DNA of 20,000 nt from the NCBI GenBank assembly GCA_045837725.1, contig JBEWZL010000030.1:481307-501306 (forward strand), given 5' to 3'. Positions within the stretch are counted from its first letter, which is position 1. Every line of letters starts with the position of its first letter. The position numbers and the translations under genes were made by a program. This document shows positions 3,620 through 20,000 of the stretch, in pieces. The stretch comes from Vermamoeba vermiformis. Lineage: Eukaryota. The notes beneath the pieces are model-generated. The model was given only the letters and a program-made list of their open reading frames with translations. It did not search any database and was not told the origin of the DNA.

Positions 3620-4460
3620 ATGGCTGAAACTCCTGCCTCATTATTATTAAAAAAGCAGCTCCGAGGTAAATTACCCGCATAATTACGGAAATATCAGAAA
3701 AACGCAATTCTCGCATATTCATTATTAATATGGTACCTGCCTTGCAAATTTCTAATCACGCAAATTGACAGATTTGAGCAAGAACCCAGTCGAAGGTATT
3801 TCTGCTGGACTTGTTGACGAGTCGAATGTATTTGAGTGGCAAGTCTGCATTGTCGGCCCTACTGATACATTATAGTAAGTAAAGCAAATTTATGCTGATT
3901 TTTTGAATTTTTTTTTCCTTTATTGCAAGATTGACTGAAAAATATTTCCATAGTGAGGGAGGAGTCTTCAACGCAATTCTCAAGTTTCCCGAAGAATATC
4001 CTAACATGCCTCCGAAGATGAGATTCACTACGAAGCTCTATCATCCAAACAGTAAGGGCACGAGACGGATGCGATCGGATTCATTTTTTAATTTTTTCTC
4101 TTAAGTCTATCAAACTGGTGAGGTCTGTATTTCTATATTACACCCTCCTGGTGAGGACAAGTGGGGTTATGAGCGTCCGGAGGAGAGATGGCTTCCTGTA
4201 CACAGTCCCGAGACTATTTTACTGAGTGTCATTTCTATGCTGTCGGATCCAAACGACCAATCACCTGCCAACCTTGAAGCTGCTGTAAGTAACGCATAGA
4301 TATATTTTTTAAAATTAATGCAATCGAATACACTTTAATTTTCGATTGTTTTTTGCTGATGCGATTTTCTTTGATATTACAGAAAGATTGGCGAGAGAAC
4401 CAAGCACTGTTTAAGAAGAAGGTTCGACAGTGCGTCCTTCGCTCTCAAGAAGAAATGTAA
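3620..4460 (+). CDS. UBC7: Ubiquitin-conjugating enzyme E2, UBC7/UBE2G1 family (5 exons)
   Basis: Spliced product [40 protein letters not shown]...[10 protein letters not shown]...[37 protein letters not shown]...[19 protein letters not shown]. It has the HPN motif, the catalytic Cys and the acidic insertion typical of the Ubc7/Cdc34 class. Confidence 0.96.
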
Positions 4461-5045: not shown

Positions 5046-6595
5046 CTACAATGCAGTCGCAATAAGAGCAGTAAAAATAGCTGTCAATGAACGGATTGTG
5101 CGTGACGATCCAGAGACATTGTTGCCAGACTTTGCGACAGGCACAGCAACTGATTTTGGAACGCTAGTTGGCTCTGTGATTGACCCCTGTGGTGCATCAG
5201 AAGGTGTGTTCGTTAATGGACAAGTGACCGTGGCATTGCAAGAGGCCAGCTTTACGCCAAATCTGGAAAAGTCGAATGAAACCTCCAAGCCTTGTCTGCT
5301 GAATGACGCTTGAGAGACGACCGGTTGAATTCCGCAGCCAGGGTTGTGGATCGTGTAGAGCTCTTCCATTACAAAACTTCGCAAATCAGCGCACGACGTG
5401 AGTTGTTGATTGACGCACGTGACGTCAATGGGATCGCCGTAGCAGAAAGGCACTGGAGTAAAGCCGCACATGGCCTCAGATGTGCCAGGACCGGAAAAAA
5501 TGCAATTCCAAACGAGAATCTCTTGATCGGTTTTGACCAAGTCAGCACCCCATATTCGGTCTCTGACTTCTTGTTGAATTAGCGCTGCAATTTTCCATTG
5601 TTTATCAGCACCTCGTTCAAGTGAAACAACACTTCCAACTCCGCGCAAGTCTGGGGCATTAGCGGAGTTGTCGAAGATAGCGGCCAGCAACACTTTTGTC
5701 TCGGAGACCATCACCATATTAATGCCGAGTGCTCCACTAGGTTGGATAAAACCTTTGCCGGAAGTCTCTAGTGTAACGTTCCAAGTGTTCTCGTTCTTGA
5801 CGTAGACTCGGATCATGGTGTCATAACCTTCGACTTGCGCGTAAAACGAATAGCCCATAACAATTGAATCGTTGATCCATAAAAGTCTGATTGGTTGTAA
5901 CAGATCGCCATCGTTCAGTATTTGAACTCTTTCACGCTCCGTCCAAGTGTAGTTATCGTTGCGCTGCATCAATACGATGACGTTGACGCTAAGATAAGCC
6001 AAATAAGGGCCCGTTACGTGCATTGGAATGCCAAGGGGAATAACATTTGTAGCGGTAATTGTTGTCTCGTCAACAACGTCCCAGGTGTCACCGTTGTTGA
6101 CACGTGTCACAAGGGAAGTGGTGTTCATGGCAACAAAAGTGTTGTCGGGTAAGAATTGAATCCTATAATAGACTTCAGGATACTTTATCATTGTTCCAAT
6201 GCCGGATGTAGCCTCGTTGAACGTGAAGAGTTGAAGTTCGGAATTTGTGGCACACGCAAACCAAACTCCATTAGTAGCGACAATGGCACAAGCTTGTGAA
6301 GTGAACCAACGAGTGTAGAATAGTCCAGAAGATTCGCTTCGTTTCAAGATCCGGAGTTGAACTGAAGTCGACAAGATCGTGTAATTGCCAGCCGAAGAGG
6401 CTGGTAGATAACCAGCTTGGGGAAAATTTATGGCTTGAGTTGGACCTCCAGGAATTTTAAATATCTTAAATCAAATATTTGATTAATTTTGAATTCGCAA
6501 CGACGAGCATTTCTTACCGGCAGATCTGCTGCACAGGCACTAAGAAGGCAACCCAATAACAAGAAAAGAATTGGCTTCGCAATACATCTGTTCAT
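5046..6595 (-). CDS. Secreted or cell-surface protein, 498 aa: signal peptide, beta-rich (propeller-like) body, Cys-containing C-terminal domain, S/T/P stalk and GPI-type hydrophobic tail. Exons: 6595-6518, 6464-5046
   Basis: Exon 1 encodes MNRCIAKPILFLLLGCLLSACAADLP (signal peptide). A 53-nt GT-AG intron (6517-6465) joins it in frame to the 442-aa ORF. The C-terminus SGSSRTIRSLTAIFTALIATAL* has no cytosolic tail. Confidence 0.85.
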
Positions 6596-7750
6596 CTCTG
6601 CTGCTGTTGTGGTCTTCGTATAACTTCTGATATAAATAATTCTTTAAATAGTCATAAAGTTGTAAAGTGAAAGATATCGTTGACTTTGCGGCACTTATTC
6701 TCGTTTTGAATATATTTTTAGATGGCCTAGGCATCGTTAGTGATATCCACTGTCTGTCGGTTTACTGATCCGACCTTGCGAAGTATTCAAAACATCAATG
6801 GTGTAGACTTTGACTGTGCCTTGTCGGCGATCTGAAATAGTAAATGTGTTAATCAAAATTACTTGTTAGAGAGGCAATCCTAACGTACTAAGTCGATTCT
6901 TGCTCCGATCCGTTCGACGACCACTAGAGTAAATGTAAGGCGTTTTTTGCCGTTTTTTTGCTCAAACGTTTTTCAAATAGCTGGCGACGAAAACGGCAAA
7001 AACGGGAACAGGCGATTTTGGCGACTTGCAACGGATGTGGTGACACATCACGAGAGAAGATAGAGATGGCGCTTCAAAGGTAAGATGGACTATTATAGTA
7101 CTATTCGTTTTAATATTAAACTCAAAAGTTTTAAAAAAAGTCGGATTTTCAATCCTGACACGGGATCGAGATCTGGGCTTGATGAATTTTTTTAATTATT
7201 TTAGTAATAAATATCGAAATCGCTATCATAGATTGTATTAAATTTATTAACGAAATGTTAAAAATCGATAAAAATTTTGAATGCTTGTACATCCGCGATC
7301 TTACTTAGACACTTCATTTTGATTATTAAATTGCTTTGGAACGAAGATTCGTTAATATTTAACACAAAATTAATTACTGTGGACAGAATCTTTTGGCTTG
7401 GATTCGTTGCCCGATCTGAACAACTTGCGATCTCGCTTCGGTAAGTAACTATAGAAATGAATTTGATTTTCAACGTCACAAATAATAAGATTATATAAAA
7501 TTCCCGTACTATAGTAGTAGTTTTTTACCCTGCTACGCAGCGTAAGCTGAGATCCCGTTTTAAAAAAAGTTTGCCGGCAATCTTTAGCTTAGATTTACAA
7601 ATTGAAACGTTCCATTTAGAAATAACAGATATTATCGAAGTTTATTAATGATTACAGCAAAAGCAAGCAAAGTTAATGAATTCAATCCGGGATCATTAGC
7701 ACTTTGGCTACTCAGTAAAACTCTCGTACTAAAACAGCCTTATCATACAG

Positions 7751-8608
7751 ATGAATATTAGATGCAGTGGTGTTTGTTCATACCTTCGTTTGAGACGAGT
7801 CGGTCGACTGTTCAAGCATAAATTTTGTGCGGGCTCAATTCTCAATGTGCAGCAAAATGAGTACAACGAACAACAACATGTAAGTAACTCTGCATTACAT
7901 TGGATATTTATACGTGTATAATATTATTAACCAGGCTTACCAGGTCAAGAACTGCTAATTTCAAGCTTCAATCTCGATGGGACGACGTCGGTCAGTTGAA
8001 ACGCAGCTGGATTGCACTTAACACGCCAATGGTATGATATTTACTATGTATGCATTAAATTATAAGCAATGAGTCAAATTCATTCATTCGAATTACTTTT
8101 TGGTCGTTTGATCTTGCGATCGAGAAATTAAAATTTCAGTTAGTTAATTTTTACTAATTTTGCCAATAGTGCCAATAATATACTCAATGTAAACATCGGT
8201 TAGGATAATTTCCTCTAGCACAATGGTAAAGTTTTTTATTTGCAAATCTGCCGTTACTAATCCGTTGTTTTCAGTCCGTCCGAGTTAGCTAGCTAATGCC
8301 TTCGCTGACCCATTCCCTTGCTAGAGCAGAGTCCAACAACACATCCGACCTTAAGGCCCTTCGCTCGATCCGCTTTTGGCGTTGAAGCATCGCGTAAGTG
8401 TCTGTTTTGTATTTACCCTATAACAACCACTTTATTAATAATTCCTTTTAGATCATCAAGTCACAGCGACATCCAGCCAAGATCGGCGAAGTAGTGGATC
8501 TTCGGGTTAGGACTTTGTGCGTGCAGTTACACCTTCAACTTAGCCGCACACAAAGTCCTAACCCGAAGGTCCACTACTTTGCCGAAGTCATTTTGTAAAA
8601 CGAATAAA
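7751..8608 (+). ncRNA. Spliced, ORF-poor transcript inside the CACTA-ended element (candidate pri-miRNA or lncRNA)
   Basis: GT-AG introns of typical size at 7880-7934, 8032-8169, 8226-8274 and 8394-8451; branch-like CTAAT motifs are visible in the middle two. The best spliced ORFs are only about 40-50 aa. AATAAA at 8603-8608. Confidence 0.5.
8483..8585 (+). ncRNA. 37-bp near-perfect hairpin, pre-miRNA/hpRNA-like
   Basis: 8483-8519 TCGGCGAAGTAGTGGATCTTCGGGTTAGGACTTTGTG pairs with 8549-8585 CACAAAGTCCTAACCCGAAGGTCCACTACTTTGCCGA. Both non-Watson-Crick positions are G-U pairs on the + strand. The 29-nt loop region is partly pairable. Confidence 0.7.
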
Positions 8609-8920
8609 ACTGTACTTACCGAAAACGGCGTTTTTTCTCTTTCGCGTTTTCTCCTGTTCAAAAATCGCTGCTGAGTGAAACTGTTTGTGGTCAAAAACGG
8701 TGTTTTTACCCCCTTTTACCTTTCCTCTAGTGGTACAGCGGAGTAGATCTCGTGACAATACGACCGACTTAGGAGAAAACTACTCTACAAATTATGCAAG
8801 ACTACTTCTACTCCATTAATTTACTTAGCCCTGAAATCCATAAATGTTGATTAACTAAACACTGGTATATTATTTTTTGCTGTTTTACATCCGAACCGAA
8901 GAAATAGTGCAAAATTATCT

Positions 8921-9100
8921 GTTTTGCAAGTCACCGTCGCATTACACGCTGCCATCTGCACGCCAAATCTGCTGAATTCCTGCGACACTTGCAGTCCCGA
9001 GAAGTCTGCAGTCGTTTTTAACAGTAAAGAGCTCTTCATCAATCTTAAAGCTACTAACGCTCGTGCACGAAGCAAGCTGCTGATCGAGGAACGTGACGCT
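8921..9100 (-). pseudogene. Truncated, frameshifted paralog fragment of the surface-protein gene at 5046-6595
   Basis: SVTFLDQQLASCTSVSSFKIDEELFTVKN aligns with DVTCVNQQLTSCADLRSFVMEELYTIHN. After a deletion and frameshift, GLQVSQEFSRFGVQMAACNATVTC aligns with GLEVSFDFSRFGVKLASCNATVTC. Confidence 0.8.
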
Positions 9101-9214
9101 AGTAACCTAACGTGCCTGGAGAACGTGGACTGCCCTCAAGAGAGGCAGAGTTAACCCTCAATCCATTGCATTAACGAGCTAATGAGAGTATTTATAATTA
9201 TTTACAATGATGTA

Positions 9215-12200
9215 TTATTTCGCTACTCGGAGACCAAAATTTTGTTTCTTTGCGGGTGGTTTGTGGATCTCGATATTTGCACTCGGATCCATTTGATCTA
9301 ACGACCGTTTTCGAGAATTAACAGCCAAGTTCTGTGGCGGGACGGCTTGGGGCTGTGGCACGGGTACTGCTATTGGCGTGGCTTGAACACCCAATGACGT
9401 TCTCAATGGGATGTTTTGTTGCGGCACGTTGATTGGTGCTTGTGTGGGCACTTGAATGGCAGGCTGCACGGCCATGTAACTGCGCGAGGCATTCGTGACA
9501 TTAGCTGGGACACCTGTCACTGGCTGCACGACGCGTGTCGTTTGATTGGGAACTGATGGCGCGTACGCAACTGTCGGCATGTGTGGCTTGGCAACGGCAA
9601 CAGGGACAGGTTGTTGCTGGTGCATTTGATTGATGACAGGTCTGCTGTTGTTATTGATTTGTTGTTGGGGCTGAGCTTGGACTTGTTGTTGTTGCTGCGG
9701 CTGAGACTGCTGTTGCACGTGTTGTGCTTGATTTGATTGGCTTTGAGGTGGTTGTTTTTGTGGCGTGGCTGTAGCCTCAGTCGTAGGTCTGAACAAAGAC
9801 TCGGCGTAAGTCAACGCACGTTTCTCGATTCGTTTGCAATTGAACTGTTTGAGTATATGATTCTCTTCGTAGTCTTCAAGAATCGTCCATGCATCAACAT
9901 TGTTCGGTAGTGTCGAAGAGGTGCTTGTTGGCTTCGCAACCACAGCTCCGGTGCTCGGAGCAGCCGTAGTGCCAGGGGCTGAAGTTGGCACTGTGGTCGG
10001 GGCAGCAGTGGACGCTGCCTCTGTTTGTCCTGTCAACAAGAACGGCATGATCTGTTCCATTCGTTGTTGCAAGGTCGGTGGCAACTTGGCCGTCCTCAAC
10101 AACTCTTGCAGTTTCTTCTTCAAAGGCGAGTTCAAGTTGTCCATTCTCAAGCCTCTCAAAGCTCTTCGGTTCGATGAGGCCATGTTCGCTGCAGATCCGC
10201 TGTCTTTCTCGCCCAAGAGACAGAAGAGCGTGAACAAGATCAAGTACCACAATTCAATGCCGTCAACTGCATTGACCTGGAGTGCCGGCACGAGCAGTAG
10301 GTTCGTTAATGTCGTAGCCAGCTCTTCTTGGTAGTTGTATGGGATCTGAACACCCTTCACGATCATCGCACCAACAAATCTCAATCGTAACACAATCTGT
10401 AGCCGCTGTCGCTTCAGTTTGATCGTGTCTTCTTCAGGCGACTACAAGACATTGTTATTAAGAGCCATATATAAACATCAAACAATGAGACTTACGCTTA
10501 ATCTCTCGCCAATCTGCTTCAATTGGACTTGCACAGATTTGATGAATGACACGCGAAGTTCATTAGGCACTTCAGTCAAGGACGACAACACAACTTGCAA
10601 GATCTCCGTGAATAAGTTATAGCTGTCCGTGGCTTGTGAGTACTGCGGGTCAATGGACTTGTCAACCTCGTACCTAAAATGAAATCACGAGTTAATAGGA
10701 GTATCGCTATAGGGCGCAAAAGTAACGCAAACTTACGAGAACAGACGGATCGTTTCGGTCAAAGTACTTGTGCCGTTCAACAGGTCCGTGCTTTCAAACA
10801 ACTTTTGCGTGTAGTTGACAATCTCTTTGTGCACTTCAATGCCTAGTATAGCGACAAGACGTTGCAGGATACTTCCGAAGCTGACATCGTAAGCGAGCCC
10901 GTTGGTCAGTTGATTAAAGATGAGCTTCACGAGCACGGGCTCAGAGTTGAAAGTGTCGCCGTCCCAATTGATCACTTGTCGCTTATTTGATTTCAAGAGC
11001 CACCATAACTCGTCCATGAGCAATCTAATCTCGAGCCAAGCGCGGTTAAGTGACCACGTGTTCGTGTTGCTGAGAACTCTTTGCATCATTTTGACGACCT
11101 CCGACAAGTCAATCTTTTCCATCACGTGCAGCTTCAAGAACGAAGTCTCGTTTGGTGATAAGATGTGGAAAACAATGCGACAGCCAGTGGGATCACGAAG
11201 GGTCTTCAACTTCTCGTATAAGTTCGTTGTGTCTTCCAAGCAGATCTGCGCAACGAAGGTGTTGTCCAAGGCAAAATTTTCCATTTCTTTCTTGACAGCA
11301 TCAATCACGGTCTCTTTTTCAGCTGAGGTAAGCACGCTCAATGCAGTGTTGTGCACGGGGTGAGTGCTCGAGTACTCCTCGTTGAAGATCACTTCGCTCT
11401 TGTACACGTACAACAACAATCCAAAGGCCAGTTCTAACGATAAGGACGACGCGGACAGTCTCAAAGAACTCAATTCCTAGACGAAGGAGTCATTAAATAT
11501 ACTACAATATAACGGGCAAAAGTGACTTACGTGTGCCGAAAACACGCCCAACTGTGCAAAGGCAGGTTCGTCTAACAGCAACAGTTTGACAATATTGACT
11601 TGGACAGGTGTCAATTGTGTCGCCCTGGGTGACTGTTCGATTTCTTGAAGGACTGGCAACGCAATGTTCGTGTAGAATTGTTCGAGACCAACGAAATTGA
11701 TGAGCACGAGACCGAACCAAAAGCTGACCATGGCGCGGTAAGTCTCGCTCCATTGCTCAGTTTTCAAGAACGAAATCGATTGGTCCTTCAAGCACGTGTA
11801 AGCATTGGTGTCACTATCACCGAAGAGTCCTTGTGCTCGTAACTCCAATACCAATCTTTGATAGATTGACAACTGTTTTTGTGCCAGTGATTTGCTGCAA
11901 TTAAATTAGTAAGGGTTTTCATATTATAGTAGGACATATATTATAAGTTACCTTGTGAGGGCAGGCCAATCTTTCGTGTACTGAGTAAAAGCTGCAACGA
12001 CCACTTTGTAGCTGTTGTCAGATCCAGCCAAAGATGACTTAAATTCGGCTAAGACTTCATCAAAGACCTTATTCATTGTTGCACTATCCTCGTTGCCTTC
12101 AACTAATAGTGACAACTTCGCAACCTGATCCACAACTGAGCTGTCGGGTTGGATCTGGATCTGCGAGTCCGAAGCATTTTGCTTCGATACCTAGAGTAAC

Positions 12201-15200
12201 GTTATTCAGTTAATATGGCATCTCTATTATAATGGTAGTGACTGACCTCTGCTAGCTTCCTCTTAAGTTTGTCGTTCAATTTGGCCTTGCTGATCCATTG
12301 TTTAACGCCCACAAGTGTGCCGTACCGCTTGATAAACGAGCACAAATAATTCGTAACTTTTTCTTCTAAACCAGCACCCAAGTTTTCATCATACTGTAAC
12401 GTACAGTTAGTACTATAGTAATGCATTTATATAGACGTACCTTATTATGCAACTGTTGCAATAGTTCGTTGGTTCCATCGGTCCAAAAGAACAGAAATTC
12501 GTATTTTTGTACAAAATATAATACATTCGCATTTCCGTTGTTGAAGTAGCTCTGCAACAATCGCATAATGATGTGACTTATTGACCCTAAGTCATTTGAT
12601 ATCTCCAAAATATAAAACACTTGCAGGATATAATAATCGCTGCCTTTCCAGTACCTCCTGTACAAAAGAAAAAAAAATTAAAAAAAATTGCAAAAAAATT
12701 CAAAAATTATCTTATTACCATTTATGCTTCTCGAATTGCTCCTTAAAGTGCTCTATAATTCTTTCTCCGAAGTAGCATTGATAATAAAACGGTTGAGTCT
12801 TCAAAAAGTCGACTAACGCATCCATGCTCGAACCGTTTGCTTGTAATGGATTATCGCTCGTAAGACTCGTCAAATAGTCTTTGAGCATTTGTTTTCCGCT
12901 ATGTACAATTTCTTGGTCATTCTTAATACAAATATTAGCTTGCGATCCGGATGCATCCGCTACACGCCGGAAAAATATCTCTTGAATTCTAAATATTATT
13001 ACCTTAATACCAAGTGAACTTAATGACGTCCTTCGTTGATTTCTTTCATGCTTGCATTCTCCGAAAATGGGGAATTGCAGTAAAAAGTTTCGGTGCTAAA
13101 TGAATCGCGTTAGTTAGCATTCAACTCTTAAATTGAGCTTTAAATAAGGTGTAAAGGATACTTACTAGATGATTATCACTTCTATCAATTAATCCTCGCG
13201 AGATCAGGCTCCGGACGTAGTTATCATGAGAGAAAACGTTGGCGCGAATTAACTCGCCAAACAATAATACAACTTGTGTCTCGGCTGTAAATAAAATCAA
13301 TTAGTAGCCAAATTAATAGGACAGTCATGATAATAAAACATACAGTGACCGTTAAAAGTTCCGGCATCCAAGAACGACGAAAGATGATCTTGCAGCGATA
13401 CATTTGAGCCCTAAAATATGGTTAATATACTATCGCAGTCCGTATCGTAAAGCATCACAAATCAAATCAAAATAATACTTCGAAATTTCAATAATTAAAA
13501 AGTGATTTGTAACGACTTGCCTCTTGAGCACACAGATCAGCTTTCAATCGTCGAATCAATGAGACGGTTATATATACACGGTACATCTCATTCTTCGACT
13601 GGCAGGTCGTTCCCCACTCGCACAACAAATGCACGTTTTCCTCGCGCTTCTCCTGCGATCCAGATGTGAGTTCCTCATACAATATCAACCCAGATGGTAC
13701 TTACTGGTAATGGTAGCTCGGAGAATAGGTGTTTATAAATATACTCGATGTCTTTTGTCCTTGACAAATTCTCCAAAGTCTGTGCAACGATTCGTAAATA
13801 CGGATCCGTTTCAAAAATTCTTAGAGAACAAAACTTACCTCTATTAAGTTCGACCTAGATGTCGTCGGTGGGTTGATAAACTGTTCGACAGTATTCAATC
13901 TTTGACGCAATTGCGCGAGGTTTTGGATGCAGATCTCATCCGTGTCTGATAATTGAAACAACTACAAAAAAATTAGAATTAGTACTACGCGGTAATAAAA
14001 ATTCATTTGTACTTACCGAAGATCCATTGTTCGATTTTACAATAGCTTTGCTGCTATCACTTTCATTGTTAGAACGTTCCAATGCGCGTTCTATAACAGA
14101 CAAAATGTCGGTGCCAGCAGGAATGAGCAGATCCGGCTCAAAAATCAAAGCTGCTCTGAGGATGGTGACTAGATTGCTATGGAACTTCACTTCGATCGCG
14201 TAGTTCGTTGGATCCGGAACAAAAGTGCCCGAAACATAGTTGCTCTGGTACAACTGGATCCGACTGTTAGTATTCATACTGCACTATGATAATGATATTA
14301 TACGTACTTGGAATAGTCTAGTGTGACAAAAATCTAATAATCTGCTTGCAACTGCTTGTTTGGGCAAAATGTCGTCGAGGTACTGCAACAGAACGGACAA
14401 AATTAAGCACTGGTTATCGACCTTATTCGATTTTTGCAGCTCTTCTAATAGCGCATTAAACAGCGCGTCCTTGTCGATTAGTCCTTCTTTGTAAGTCCAA
14501 TGCAAAAGTCGGATCACGTAGCTCATTTTTTGCTTTCGCTTCTCGGAAGTTAATGCTGCATTATTTGCACCCATACTGTCTGGACCAGTCTTCTTGAGTC
14601 CTGTTTTGACGTAGAACTCGCGCACTTGCTTGATAATATTATTGACCAAAATTGTCGTCCAGTTAGTGGATGCAGTGTCTTTTTGCGTTGACTTTGGTGT
14701 GCCTTGCGATATTGAATAGTAGTTGTTCAAATATGAGATCTTAATGTACCACGTCGCTCGCACGAGTGGAATTCGTTGTTCCGCCAGCACCATAATTAGC
14801 GATTCTCCTTTAGGTCTATTAAACAAACAATCAGTACGAGAAAGAATTGCAAAAATAAATATATATAATTATGACGCGTATTAATATTATTATGTTAACT
14901 AATCGATTCACATTTGCTCGTGCGTGTTACGACCACAAGAATTTTTTTTCAATTAAATATGGATAATTCAGCAATAGTGTAATAGGCTATAAAAGCATTA
15001 TAATCCTATTATAATCATATTACGCACCCTTGCGGCACTTTGAGAGCCAAAACGCTCAATCGTTCATCAGGCTTGGCTAATTTATCAAAGAAGGTCTTCT
15101 TTGTGCTATCAGTAGACGCAACTTGCTCCGGAAAAAATAATTTTCGTTTCATGAGCGGTGCGCCAGCCGGTTTGGCCGCATCTTTGTTGTTCGCGCTTGC

Positions 15201-16285
15201 ATTTCCCTAAAAAGGAAATGAGAAAATTCGAATAATGCCGTGAGTCATTTAGCAGCCGATAAGAATAGGAATTGCCAAATATAATACGATGATCTGGCGT
15301 CATTATTAAAGTAATACTATTATTACATAAATAATTCATGAACGTTAACGGCGTTGCACTTTGCCGAAAATAAAAAAAATAAAATAAACAATGCAATTTT
15401 GAGACTAGAGTAAATACCTTTCTAGTATTCTCCTTCTTCCACGTTAAATTGGTCATAGTGTTCCAGATTTTATCGGCAGCTTTTTTGGCGATCTCGCAGT
15501 ATTCAGTGCGAGCAGATCCGTATTCGTCAGCCTTAATAGGTAAAATTAGTGCCCAAAGTAGTTGAAAAAGAATAAATCGCTGTCATATGTGTATTTAATC
15601 ATAATATCGGATTTTCGGAACTGTTTCTTAAAAAGGTATTGTCAGAAGTATGACATTTGTAAGTAAATCCGAGCGAGGATATTAAAATGAAATTAAAATG
15701 ACCGGGATCGGTATACGTGCCCGATTCATATTATTTAAGATCGTTTGTAAATTTAAAAATTACCGTGATTTGAAGAAAATGATTTTTCAATTTTTAGATT
15801 TGGTTTAGGGAGTTGAATAGCACTTACATCACTCACATATTTGGCTTCTTTGAACCCATGTTCAATAGTTTGTCCAGTAAGCACTTCTTCGGGTGCGTAC
15901 CGCGTGCACGGGAAGAAATCCGGCACACCCAAGGATTGATTCAGTGGATCTTTATCGGGACGCTTGAGCTCGTATTTTTCGTAATTCTGTTGAGCATATG
16001 AATTTGGAGGATAATAAGATGAATGTGAATGCATGTCTTGATTGTAATTATTGCTTTCTTCCCATCCACGACCTGGTGGCCGCGCAGGTGGGCGCGATTG
16101 ATTTGGATAATTGCGTGGTGGATATGCTGCTTTCGGTTTAGGTGCTTCCGGTTTTCGGCCTATATAATCATTTTAATTAATCGTGAGTTTGTGAAAGCGG
16201 ATTAACCCTTTAAAAATTATTATTGCTATTCAAAATAATAATTATTACCTTTCGGCGGGTCTTTAGGTAGTCTATTCATTGACAT
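9215..16285 (-). CDS. MED12: Mediator complex kinase-module subunit 12 (MED12/Srb8), multi-exon
   Basis: The N-terminal LGVPDFFP..PEEVLT..IEHGFKE and FFDKLAKPDERLSVLALKVPQG|PKGESLIMVLAEQRIPLVRATWYIKISYLN match the Med12 domain. Helical exons follow through the minus-strand ORFs from 14826 to 10393, ending in a Q/P-rich C-terminus with a KRS..KPPAKK NLS-like motif. The first ATG is at 16285 with a phase-consistent first intron. Not every internal exon boundary was verified. Confidence 0.9.
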
Positions 16286-17025
16286 AATATATTACAAATA
16301 TTGATTCTACAATTAATAATATTGGCTATTGGTGAATAAAAATAATACACAAAGTGAAAAAAAACGATCCGAAAACACTACATCCGTCACATTCGATAGA
16401 AGTGAAACAATCACAATAAATAAATATGATCTCTAATAAGAGAAGTGGTTGATTATCGTTAGCGCTGCTAAAAAGTGCTAAAATGCAAGCGTGCAACAAA
16501 ACGGAAACTCCGCCATTTTTGTCAGATCAAAGAACACAAACACAATGTCATATAACACGGACCCCTTTAGATGATACAAGTAAGGTAGGTTGCTTTCAAA
16601 AGATTAAGCTGACGAAAATGGATCCGCGCCAAGATGGCCACTAGCGACCTTTTATTGAATTTTCGAACTAATATTAATTGTGACGTTATTGAGCTTATTA
16701 AATTTGCCTTTATCTTCGTACTACTGCAAAAAATTCAATTTACGAGTGTGATACGAACCGTGCTGTTTCCTTGTGTTTATTCTTCACGCTTTCAAAATCA
16801 GTGCAAATTAAAATTTTTAGTAGTAACCACGCCAGGAGGCGTGTCAATACTCGATATATTTTTTTGAGCGAAAATAGTGAGATTAGGCGTTAGGCACGTA
16901 GCAAATAATTGTATCTCGAAGTTTTCTCAATATTCTCGACAGGATCAGGTAAAGGCACAAATTAATTAAATAATTAAATAATATTATTAAGAGATCATAG
17001 TGTATCTTCTGATTTTTTTTGCCAG

Positions 17026-18260: not shown

Positions 18261-20000
18261 CTGATCGGCTAAGTTATCCCACCAAATTTCTCGCAGCAAA
18301 TTTATTTGATTTAATTAACGTTTGAATATTTATTTATACTATAATTATCACGAGCCTAACGTCTATAATATATATTAACTAAATTTGAAACTATGCCGTT
18401 CTTTGTTTCTTCGGTTTAGAATTTTTACGCGAGATCTTGCGACCTCGCTTCCTCTTCAGCGGTGCTGGAGGTACCACTTCTGTTGTCATATTTTGATCAG
18501 TCTCATCTTCTTCAACAGAAGTATTACTTGAGCTTGAATAGTCACTGTCATCATCAAACTCTAGCTTTGATGCGGCGAACTTAGAAGAAATTTTGTTAGA
18601 TTATCCATCGATGCTCCGCTAAATAAGCAAGAAGGGTGTGATTCAGTACTTGAAGGCAACAATTAAGATATATGCTTATTATAGATTTATACACCCGAAT
18701 GATTTGCACCATTGCTGCAGCGAAAAAAATCTAAGAATCTAAACTTACTGATTCATCGTTCTTTTTCTGCTTTGGTATCTCAGCAATGGGGCCCACCCAC
18801 TCAGTAGGAAAATGAGTAGGATCATGCTTATGCTGCCTTGCCAAATTCGTGACAGCAGCAGCAAATCGAACAATGCTACTGAACCATTTGCGCTCGTGCC
18901 GATACTTGTGCAAAAACATACTGAAAAGTCTGCTGATTTCGCCGATCTCATCTTCAATAGGGCGCCTAACAGTTTCGATATTACTATTGATGAGCTTGTC
19001 TTCTTCAGTGAACACAGCGTTCTTTTTGTGCTTCCGCTTTGGCAGCCAAGTGCCAACGACTTTATCGTTTTCGATGCCAGTGTAACCTTTGTCCAGCACA
19101 ATGACGTCATCAGGTGACAAATGGGGCGTTATCAGAGGCATTGCTTCACGTAGTCTATAGATATCATGATGCGAAGCTGGCTTTGCTTCGCTGACGAATA
19201 AAAAGTCCTTTCGCAGATCTGCCACGAAAGTAACTTTCATACCTATTCCAGATTACAGATTAGTAAAGAAGTGATAATATATATTAAATCGACTTATAAT
19301 TTAGTTATACTATTATACTAATTCAAAGTGAATTACTTACTCCATGCCTCGTTTTTTTCGCTCCAAAAACCTTGATCTCCATGCTTTGAGTCTCCACGCC
19401 TCTTTTCGACAAGAAAGTCCTTAGCATCGATTACTAGAGTAGTCTTTGCAAGAGGGACTGGTGTTTTCGGTATCCCGTGCGAATGAGTTCGGCGGTACTG
19501 ATCTCGATCCGCGAACGAGTTAAACTTGACAATTTCGTTTGAAAATACGTCAAGGTAGAGAACCATCTTCTCAATAAGCTTGTTCATATGTGAATGAGGA
19601 TAATTATATAGCTTCTCTGAAATTAAATTGTCAGTATTGAAATAATTGAAATTTGGATGCGTTCTTGACTTACCGATAACGAGCTCAGACTGGTACTCGA
19701 CCATCCAAAACAAAAATAGAGTGATCACTTTGTTGTTTGAGATGCGGCCATGAAACACAATATGCTTATTTTGTTTCATTGATCGCACAAAGTAATCGCG
19801 GATCAGATCTAATACTGGACTCCCGATCCGACTCTTTAGAATTTCTTTCATAAATGCATAGTTTCGAATCTTTATAGGCTCCATTGTGATAACATAAAAT
19901 AATAAAATTGTTCATTGCTAATTGCGATTGTGAAATTTGGTGGGATGAACTATCCCGGAAATTCAGTTAACTTATCTCAAAAAAAGTTAAGTTATCCTTC
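18247..20000. mobile_element. IS5/PIF-Harbinger-type (DDE_Tnp_4) DNA transposon, ~1.75 kb, bounded by imperfect TIRs; right end at or just beyond the window edge
   Basis: GAAGGATATCTTAACT (18247-18262) matches the reverse complement of 19985-20000 (GAAGGATAACTTAACT) at 15/16. The inner block ATCCCACCAAATTTC (18276-18290) matches 19932-19946 perfectly. The left flank ends in TTAA. The element encodes a DDE transposase. Confidence 0.85.
18601..19884 (-). CDS. DDE_Tnp_4-family transposase with a putative N-terminal HTH; introns at 19673-19617, 19340-19243 and probably 18748-18619
   Basis: Motifs LVIDAKD, FWSEK..WS|MKVTFVAD, PASHHDI, IVLDKGYTG and NSNIETVRRPIEDEIGEI correspond to the IDGT / K / HD / DxGY / RxxVE pattern of IS5/Harbinger transposases. 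The 3' end is uncertain because of an in-frame TAA at 18601-18603. Confidence 0.88.

Follow-up and report, generated by a model that had tools for sequence, protein, structure and literature searches.

A near-perfect hairpin at the edge of a dispersed repeat in Vermamoeba vermiformis, a candidate newborn small-RNA gene

A 20,000-nucleotide stretch of DNA from Vermamoeba vermiformis (hereafter the window; 41% G+C, with short introns) encodes an RNA hairpin that is real, very stable and far beyond what chance would produce. A new feature of the locus is that one arm of this hairpin is derived from a low-copy dispersed repeat, and the simplest reading of the sequence is that the foldback arose by a local inverted duplication at the edge of that repeat. 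By analogy with known systems, we tentatively propose that the locus is a newborn source of small RNAs, either hairpin siRNAs or a proto-miRNA, of the inverted-duplication kind; we put the probability of this reading at roughly 40%.

A repeat search and inspection of the sequence identified two inverted arms of 37 nt each on the + strand, a 5′ arm at 8483-8519 and a 3′ arm at 8549-8585, which are 95% Watson-Crick complementary and lie 29 nt apart, separated by an apical loop at 8520-8548. In the pair table of the minimum-energy fold of the + strand, the arms are joined by 37 contiguous pairs, and the only pairs in this stem that are not of the Watson-Crick type are G8488-U8580 and U8499-G8569. 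On the − strand, the counterparts of both G-U pairs become A/C and are left unpaired in the fold. A preliminary description of this DNA had claimed both the 37 contiguous paired positions and the restriction of pairing by G8488 and T8499 to the + strand; the repeat search and the pair table bear out the former, and the folds of the two strands the latter. Five weak outer pairs are possible beyond the stem (8478-8482 with 8591-8595), together with a few more inside the loop; the stem measures 37-44 bp and the precursor 103-118 nt. The + strand hairpin RNA has a minimum free energy of −76.4 kcal/mol, compared with a mean of −28.8 (sd 3.6) for dinucleotide shuffles (z −13.1), and the − strand RNA one of −71.4 kcal/mol (z −10.4); for either strand, 0 of 200 shuffles were as good. 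The fold has the form asked of a miRNA precursor, being a single-strand hairpin with few mismatches and no large bulges over the ~21-nt duplex region, and it is the sole one among six inverted pairs in the 20-kb window whose complementarity exceeds 83%.

The asymmetry of the G-U pairs fits a transcribed + strand but, involving two sites only, is weak as evidence: by our own estimate, two substitutions would both leave wobble pairs on a given strand with a probability of ~0.09, if transitions make up 60% of substitutions and half of these transitions keep pairing on that strand. As the palindrome is near-perfect on both strands, one might also think of a role at the DNA level, in which a cruciform would form for protein binding, recombination or replication. 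Nothing specific supports such a role for a single, unconserved palindrome situated inside a transcribed exon, and we regard it as the most improbable of the readings considered here.

Copy number was derived from the DNA contigs of the best-matching run, X1, which may be the sample from which the window was assembled, and of which 8 of 27 records were listed. A single X1 contig with a depth of 413 (413.1) spans 7600-8562, and the summed depth reaches 1031-2067 over 8496-8751 versus 255-441 beside it, 2.5-5 times that of the neighbourhood. Among the contigs listed, one diverged contig on 8542-8638 has 6 other letters and 1 gap, another on 8630-8732 has 7 other letters, and further contigs carry small indels. 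Also among those listed, one contig departs from the window sequence ahead of 8529, and behind 8732 three contigs differ from it and from one another (agreement 0.54). The depths, the diverged contigs and the unlike flanks delineate a low-copy dispersed repeat of ~200 bp at 8529-8732 (no strand assigned), which would, as estimated from the depths, be present in ~4-7 copies of 90-95% identity at different loci.

The two arms relate differently to this repeat. The 3′ arm lies inside it, as the DNA contigs indicate, whereas the 5′ arm is antisense to its start and is itself single copy: the depth in bin 8432-8495 equals the 413.1 of the lone contig, that is, the depth of one contig, and no diverged contig among those listed lies on the 5′ arm side. 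The hairpin had been described as non-repetitive, which holds for its base composition but not for the 3′ arm, part of the low-copy repeat. The window contains no second copy of the repeat detectable by blastn; a search with 8400-8800 against the 20 kb returned the query itself and its own inverted match, the remaining matches being of at most 22 nt with E values of at least 0.079. A 20-mer from the arm had no matches in collections of metagenome, viral and prokaryote genome contigs.

The repeat also contains two similar small palindromes 72 nt apart, AAAACGGCGTTTT at 8622-8637 and AAAACGGTGTTTT at 8694-8709, both downstream of the AATAAA motif described below and each followed by T's. A GGTAAGT-like motif at ~8615-8621 on the − strand of the repeat brought to mind a spliced-leader or other small-RNA gene, which was rejected: Rfam gives nothing, and the match of the motif to 13992-14020 is mere splice-donor consensus.

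The axis of the palindrome, (8483+8585)/2 = 8534, coincides with the left edge of the repeat at 8529-8533. When the left half is globally aligned with the reverse-complemented right half, the two remain similar into the loop as far as ~8528/8537, apart from a 2-nt indel and a few mismatches; both this alignment and the pair table show residual palindromic similarity in the loop. Since the axis at 8534 lies on the repeat edge and the 5′ arm side has only one copy, the hairpin can be read as a partial inverted duplication confined to this locus. Some 50 nt at the start of the ~200-bp repeat (8529/8533-8732) would have been copied in inverted orientation directly beside the repeat, which would result in a near-palindrome centred on 8534 whose outer 37 bp are perfect bar two transitions. 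Two properties of inverted-duplication loci are found here, namely homology of an arm to sequence elsewhere in the genome, evident from the diverged X1 contigs and the unlike flanks, and a copy that is both local and partial, evident from the single-copy 5′ arm side and the axis at the repeat edge. The other repeat copy that covers the arm has no difference listed at 8569 or 8580 and has the same letters there as the 3′ arm of the window; because it matches the 3′ arm at both wobble sites, both transitions probably occurred in the 5′ arm.

The same geometry would suit an inert rearrangement scar at the edge of a repeat insertion in rapidly changing DNA between genes, one that lies accidentally in a low-level non-coding transcript, yields no small RNAs of consequence and is functionless. 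The palindrome axis falls exactly on the repeat boundary, and the divergence between the arms (2/37) is close to that between repeat copies (6-7 per ~100 nt), as expected without selection; two divergences this similar give no clear indication of purifying selection. The differences within the palindrome cluster at the centre, and DNA palindromes usually have their differences clustered there. Such a scar is quite possible, and about as likely as a source of small RNAs; further observations on either side of it follow with the transcript and with the neighbourhood of the locus.

Membership of the 3′ arm half in a dispersed repeat also brings up a MITE or foldback transposon, of which the hairpin would be one of many dispersed copies, and a PIF/Harbinger-type DDE_Tnp_4 ORF with 24-nt terminal inverted repeats is located 10 kb off. 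Yet the 5′ arm side is at single-copy depth, with no diverged contig there among the 8 of 27 contigs listed, another copy of the repeat has unrelated sequence right before 8529, and the repeat itself runs ~150 nt past the hairpin, to 8732. The flanks of the stem, ..CCAGCCAAGA before 8483 and AGTCATTTTG after 8585, share no direct repeat or target-site duplication, the 20-kb window holds no second foldback copy, and the loop and the Harbinger-type end share just a 9-nt string, which fits chance. A MITE is therefore very unlikely. The preliminary description had itself named dispersed foldback copies with their own target-site duplications as what would speak against a small-RNA locus; in the contigs listed and in the window, we found instead a single-copy 5′ arm side and read no such duplication.

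Transcription of the locus is indicated by a single contig in run X5, a run whose type was taken as RNA by guess; this contig carries a splice joint. It is 264 nt long, has a depth of 10.2 and aligns without mismatches (0) to 8185-8393 and then to 8452-8506. The joint from 8393 to 8452 skips 58 nt with GT..AG ends on the + strand and has 55 letters on its shorter side. An intron-less contig with canonical GT..AG ends on the + strand implies that + strand RNA is made here, and the preliminary description, which had placed an acceptor at 8451 in a spliced + strand transcript, is thus upheld. All on the + strand, the transcript comprises an exon covered by the contig over 8185-8393, a 58-nt intron at 8394-8451 with a GTAAGT donor and a TTTTAG acceptor, and a terminal exon at 8452-8625 that contains the hairpin; the RNA covers 8452-8506 of this exon, and its 3′ end would, judging from an AATAAA motif, be near 8625. 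The donor is exactly at 8393|8394, two bases to the left of the place that the sequence alone might suggest. The AATAAA motif, a candidate poly(A) signal at 8603-8608 (+) that begins 18 nt past the stem, is indeed, as had been noted, present at 8603, and is the only one on the + strand within 8000-9000.

Translation of the exon at 8185-8393 meets stops in all three frames, as does that of the spliced sequence 8185-8640, in which the frame through the hairpin is without a start codon. Between 6650 and 8600, there is no + strand ORF of more than 65 aa, and Pfam searches with the small ORFs across the hairpin (8309-8494 and 8452-8598 on the + strand, 8527-8715 on the − strand) yielded 0 families. 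Given the stops in all frames and the lack of a + strand ORF of more than 65 aa, the RNA is most simply taken as non-coding and, less likely, as a long 3′ UTR; the host RNA is apparently a non-coding Pol II transcript.

The X5 contig stops at 8506, after 24 nt of the 5′ arm; beyond this point, neither the rest of the hairpin, with its loop and 3′ arm, nor the poly(A) region is covered by any RNA contig in X5. The contig may break off inside the stem because depth is low, because so strong a hairpin is copied poorly, or because the RNA is processed. An RNA contig that ends within the stem, a stem that itself ends 18 nt ahead of AATAAA, and the more stable folding of the transcribed strand (−76.4 vs −71.4) would all agree with a cis-acting RNA structure of the terminal exon that governs the transcript's stability, its localisation or the way its 3′ end is formed, for instance by being cut by a nuclease specific for double strands or bound by a protein, and that gives rise to no guide RNAs. 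We consider this unlikely: no coding function that the stem might regulate can be recognised in the host RNA, the structure is not conserved in the relative L001 (see below), and the end of a contig can have many trivial causes, low depth and poor copying of hairpins among them.

The transcript also bears on the scar. Spliced RNA reaching the 5′ arm at a depth of ~10 in one run, and arm differences that both keep pairing on the transcribed strand, count against a purely inert structure. Where an organism has RNAi, Dicer would be expected to process so long a perfect stem (37 bp) when a Pol II RNA carries it, useful or not.

In a screen of sequencing runs for words of this sequence, 20 of the 24 rows listed matched in part and 2 matched at least half of the words; no RNA source was among them, and rows with small shares, which included water, soil and biofilm samples, do not enter into the evidence. 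Raw reads of two RNA-seq runs, X21 and X23, which are labelled as the same species as the best DNA source, were placed at 85% likeness. In X21, 22 reads matched, and 37 in X23, all of them in the last 5 of 30 bins (9200-9500), with 0 reads on 7600-9200. Both runs come from a lineage that is ~5-20% diverged even in neighbouring coding sequence; because of this divergence, they say little about expression of the hairpin. Reads over 9264-9500 show many fixed differences from the window, to which they are mostly 90-95% alike, and beyond 9499 the read consensus differs from the window at ~6 of 30 places. From these comparisons, one species label seems to cover deeply diverged lineages.

The only relative encoded among 75 pattern-matched stretches was a metagenome contig, L001, which is colinear with the window over 9197-15229 (75.4% over 6129 nt) and 15412-16520 (79.3%). 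Colinearity ends at the 3′ end of a large Med12-like gene on the − strand. The remaining 697 nt of this one relative, up to the end of the contig, lack any inverted repeat and carry a different gene on the opposite strand. Arms conserved in related genomes would support a miRNA without being obligatory for one; no such conservation was found in L001, the sole relative available. The hairpin region appears to be lineage-specific, which fits a young locus and neutral junk equally. Most amoebozoan miRNAs are unique to one species, according to passages of a study of this group (PMC11014262), and absence from the relative is for that reason no argument against a young locus.

The gene-poor 2.5 kb between a gene for a 474-aa protein (5046-6470, −) and the Med12-like gene contains the repeat, the hairpin and a frameshifted gene fragment. 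For an inert scar, this is a natural place: the hairpin is intergenic, sits beside a frameshifted fragment of the 474-aa gene in a region where neutral scars are expected, and is missing from the colinear L001, where another gene comes directly after.

The fragment, at 8863-9097 (−), is a partial copy of the 474-aa ORF that corresponds to residues 350-438 with ~49% identity; its frames are split at 9009/9011, it accounts for the direct repeat D1 (5221-5265 / 8927-8971), and it is probably a pseudogene fragment. The region of the 474-aa ORF itself (5046-6643, −) includes a signal-peptide-like upstream exon and encodes a hydrophobic C-terminus. No Pfam family was found for this ORF, 7 of 6372 candidate homologues matched at E ≤0.001, one of them from EukProt, and an Atlas search with the protein gave one match (0.78), which is uninformative; judged by sequence, it is a putative orphan family of secreted or surface proteins. 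The large multi-exon gene at 9215-16520 (−), colinear with 36-7191 of L001, has a glutamine-rich C-terminal exon, and its Med12 match is weak (24.2 bits vs a cut-off of 25). Elsewhere in the window, a UQ_con ubiquitin-conjugating enzyme is encoded at 3907-4299 (+), split over at least two exons, and Rfam detects a tRNA gene at 346-428 (+; 55.6 bits). The PIF/Harbinger-type transposon candidate occupies 18267-19955, with its DDE_Tnp_4 ORF at 18731-19252 (−; E 1.8e-10) flanked by imperfect 24-nt terminal inverted repeats at 18267-18290 and 19932-19955.

As a small-RNA source, the locus would work as follows. The RNA would fold into a stem of 37-44 bp with a 29-nt loop, the form of a substrate of Dicer-type RNase III enzymes, and the stem would be cut into one or two duplexes of ~21 nt. 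Its 5′-arm guides would pair as antisense strands with the remaining repeat copies, and transcripts in which the repeat is present could be silenced by them. A further step, drawn from analogy and in our view doubtful, is to see here the very birth of a small-RNA gene, in a free-living microbial eukaryote from which none has been described, with 5′-arm guides that silence an element family in trans.

At gathering score, Rfam reports only the tRNA over the window, and no described miRNA family matches the hairpin. In E-value mode, the sub-threshold hits mir-4798 (36.1 bits vs 75), MIR841 (30.4 vs 200) and mir-129 (21 vs 48.6) reflect hairpin shape. The locus is a candidate only, and an assignment to the miRNA class is not warranted. 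We scanned both strands of the window for targets of all 21-mers of 8478-8595 and found 0 sites with at most 3 mismatches outside 8440-8630, a result that, being 0 also in each of 20 shuffled controls, speaks only for this window. The preliminary interpretation of the hairpin, as an unannotated miRNA or hairpin-siRNA locus, is supported in part. A literature search on small RNA in Vermamoeba returned no description of endogenous small RNAs among the matches listed.

What is described of amoebozoan miRNAs in passages of PMC11014262 is in keeping with the small-RNA reading: precursors there are mostly 75-125 nt long, and a long hairpin that has only 0-1 mismatch is interpreted as a miRNA of recent origin. 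With a near-perfect stem and a length of 103-118 nt, a size typical of both amoebozoan and plant pre-miRNAs, the hairpin fits this picture of young miRNAs (PMC11014262). Should small RNAs arise from the locus, it would bear on whether local inverted duplications feed the high turnover of amoebozoan miRNAs that the same passages report (PMC11014262). It would then offer an unusually clean snapshot of the birth of a hairpin small-RNA gene outside plants and animals, in which the founder repeat, the inverted partial copy, the intron-bearing host transcript and the poly(A) signal can all still be made out, and would show in a protist how inverted duplication leads to a miRNA whose founder is still recognisable. 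Should they not, it would be an ordinary palindromic scar in intergenic DNA. The hairpin is a tidy candidate for a newborn small-RNA gene, yet exactly what a neutral scar would look like.

The inverted-duplication model for plant MIRNA genes reportedly goes back to an original paper of 2004. In this model, as passages of three sources present it (PMC3237417, PMC1790633, bioRxiv 10.1101/682591), young plant MIRNA genes arise when a founder or target sequence is duplicated, wholly or in part, in inverted orientation. Like such genes, the Vermamoeba locus has near-complementary arms, of which one is homologous to sequence elsewhere, is lineage-specific and has its own Pol II transcript. In contrast to them, its founder is a low-copy non-coding repeat of ~200 bp and not a protein-coding target gene, its arms are ~50 nt long and not hundreds, and it belongs to a microbial eukaryote and is known from the hairpin and its transcript alone.

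Human mir-548/Made1 is said to be an example of a miRNA derived from a MITE. Such MITE-derived miRNAs are described in passages of PMC9641971, and they resemble our candidate in that a repeat supplies sequence for the hairpin, whose small RNAs would also match the other repeat copies. There, however, the whole foldback is a dispersed transposon, whereas here only one arm stems from a repeat and the foldback is particular to this locus. A transcribed near-perfect inverted repeat whose siRNAs would be directed in trans at related sequences is also shared with hpRNA loci of the Drosophila type. The stems of those loci are hundreds of bp long and yield many phased siRNAs; the stem of 37-44 bp found here is short of that length and would hold at most two ~21-nt duplexes. 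The amoebozoan miRNAs of Dictyostelium, Physarum and Acanthamoeba, as characterised in passages of PMC11014262, are similar in precursor length (103-118 nt here), intergenic non-coding origin, restriction to one lineage and a near-perfect long stem, but were defined there by small-RNA reads, 5′ precision and duplex geometry, where the present candidate is defined by sequence and an RNA contig. By analogy, the closest likeness of the locus would be to those young MIRNA genes of plants that arose through partial inverted duplication, and to the species-unique miRNAs of Amoebozoa.
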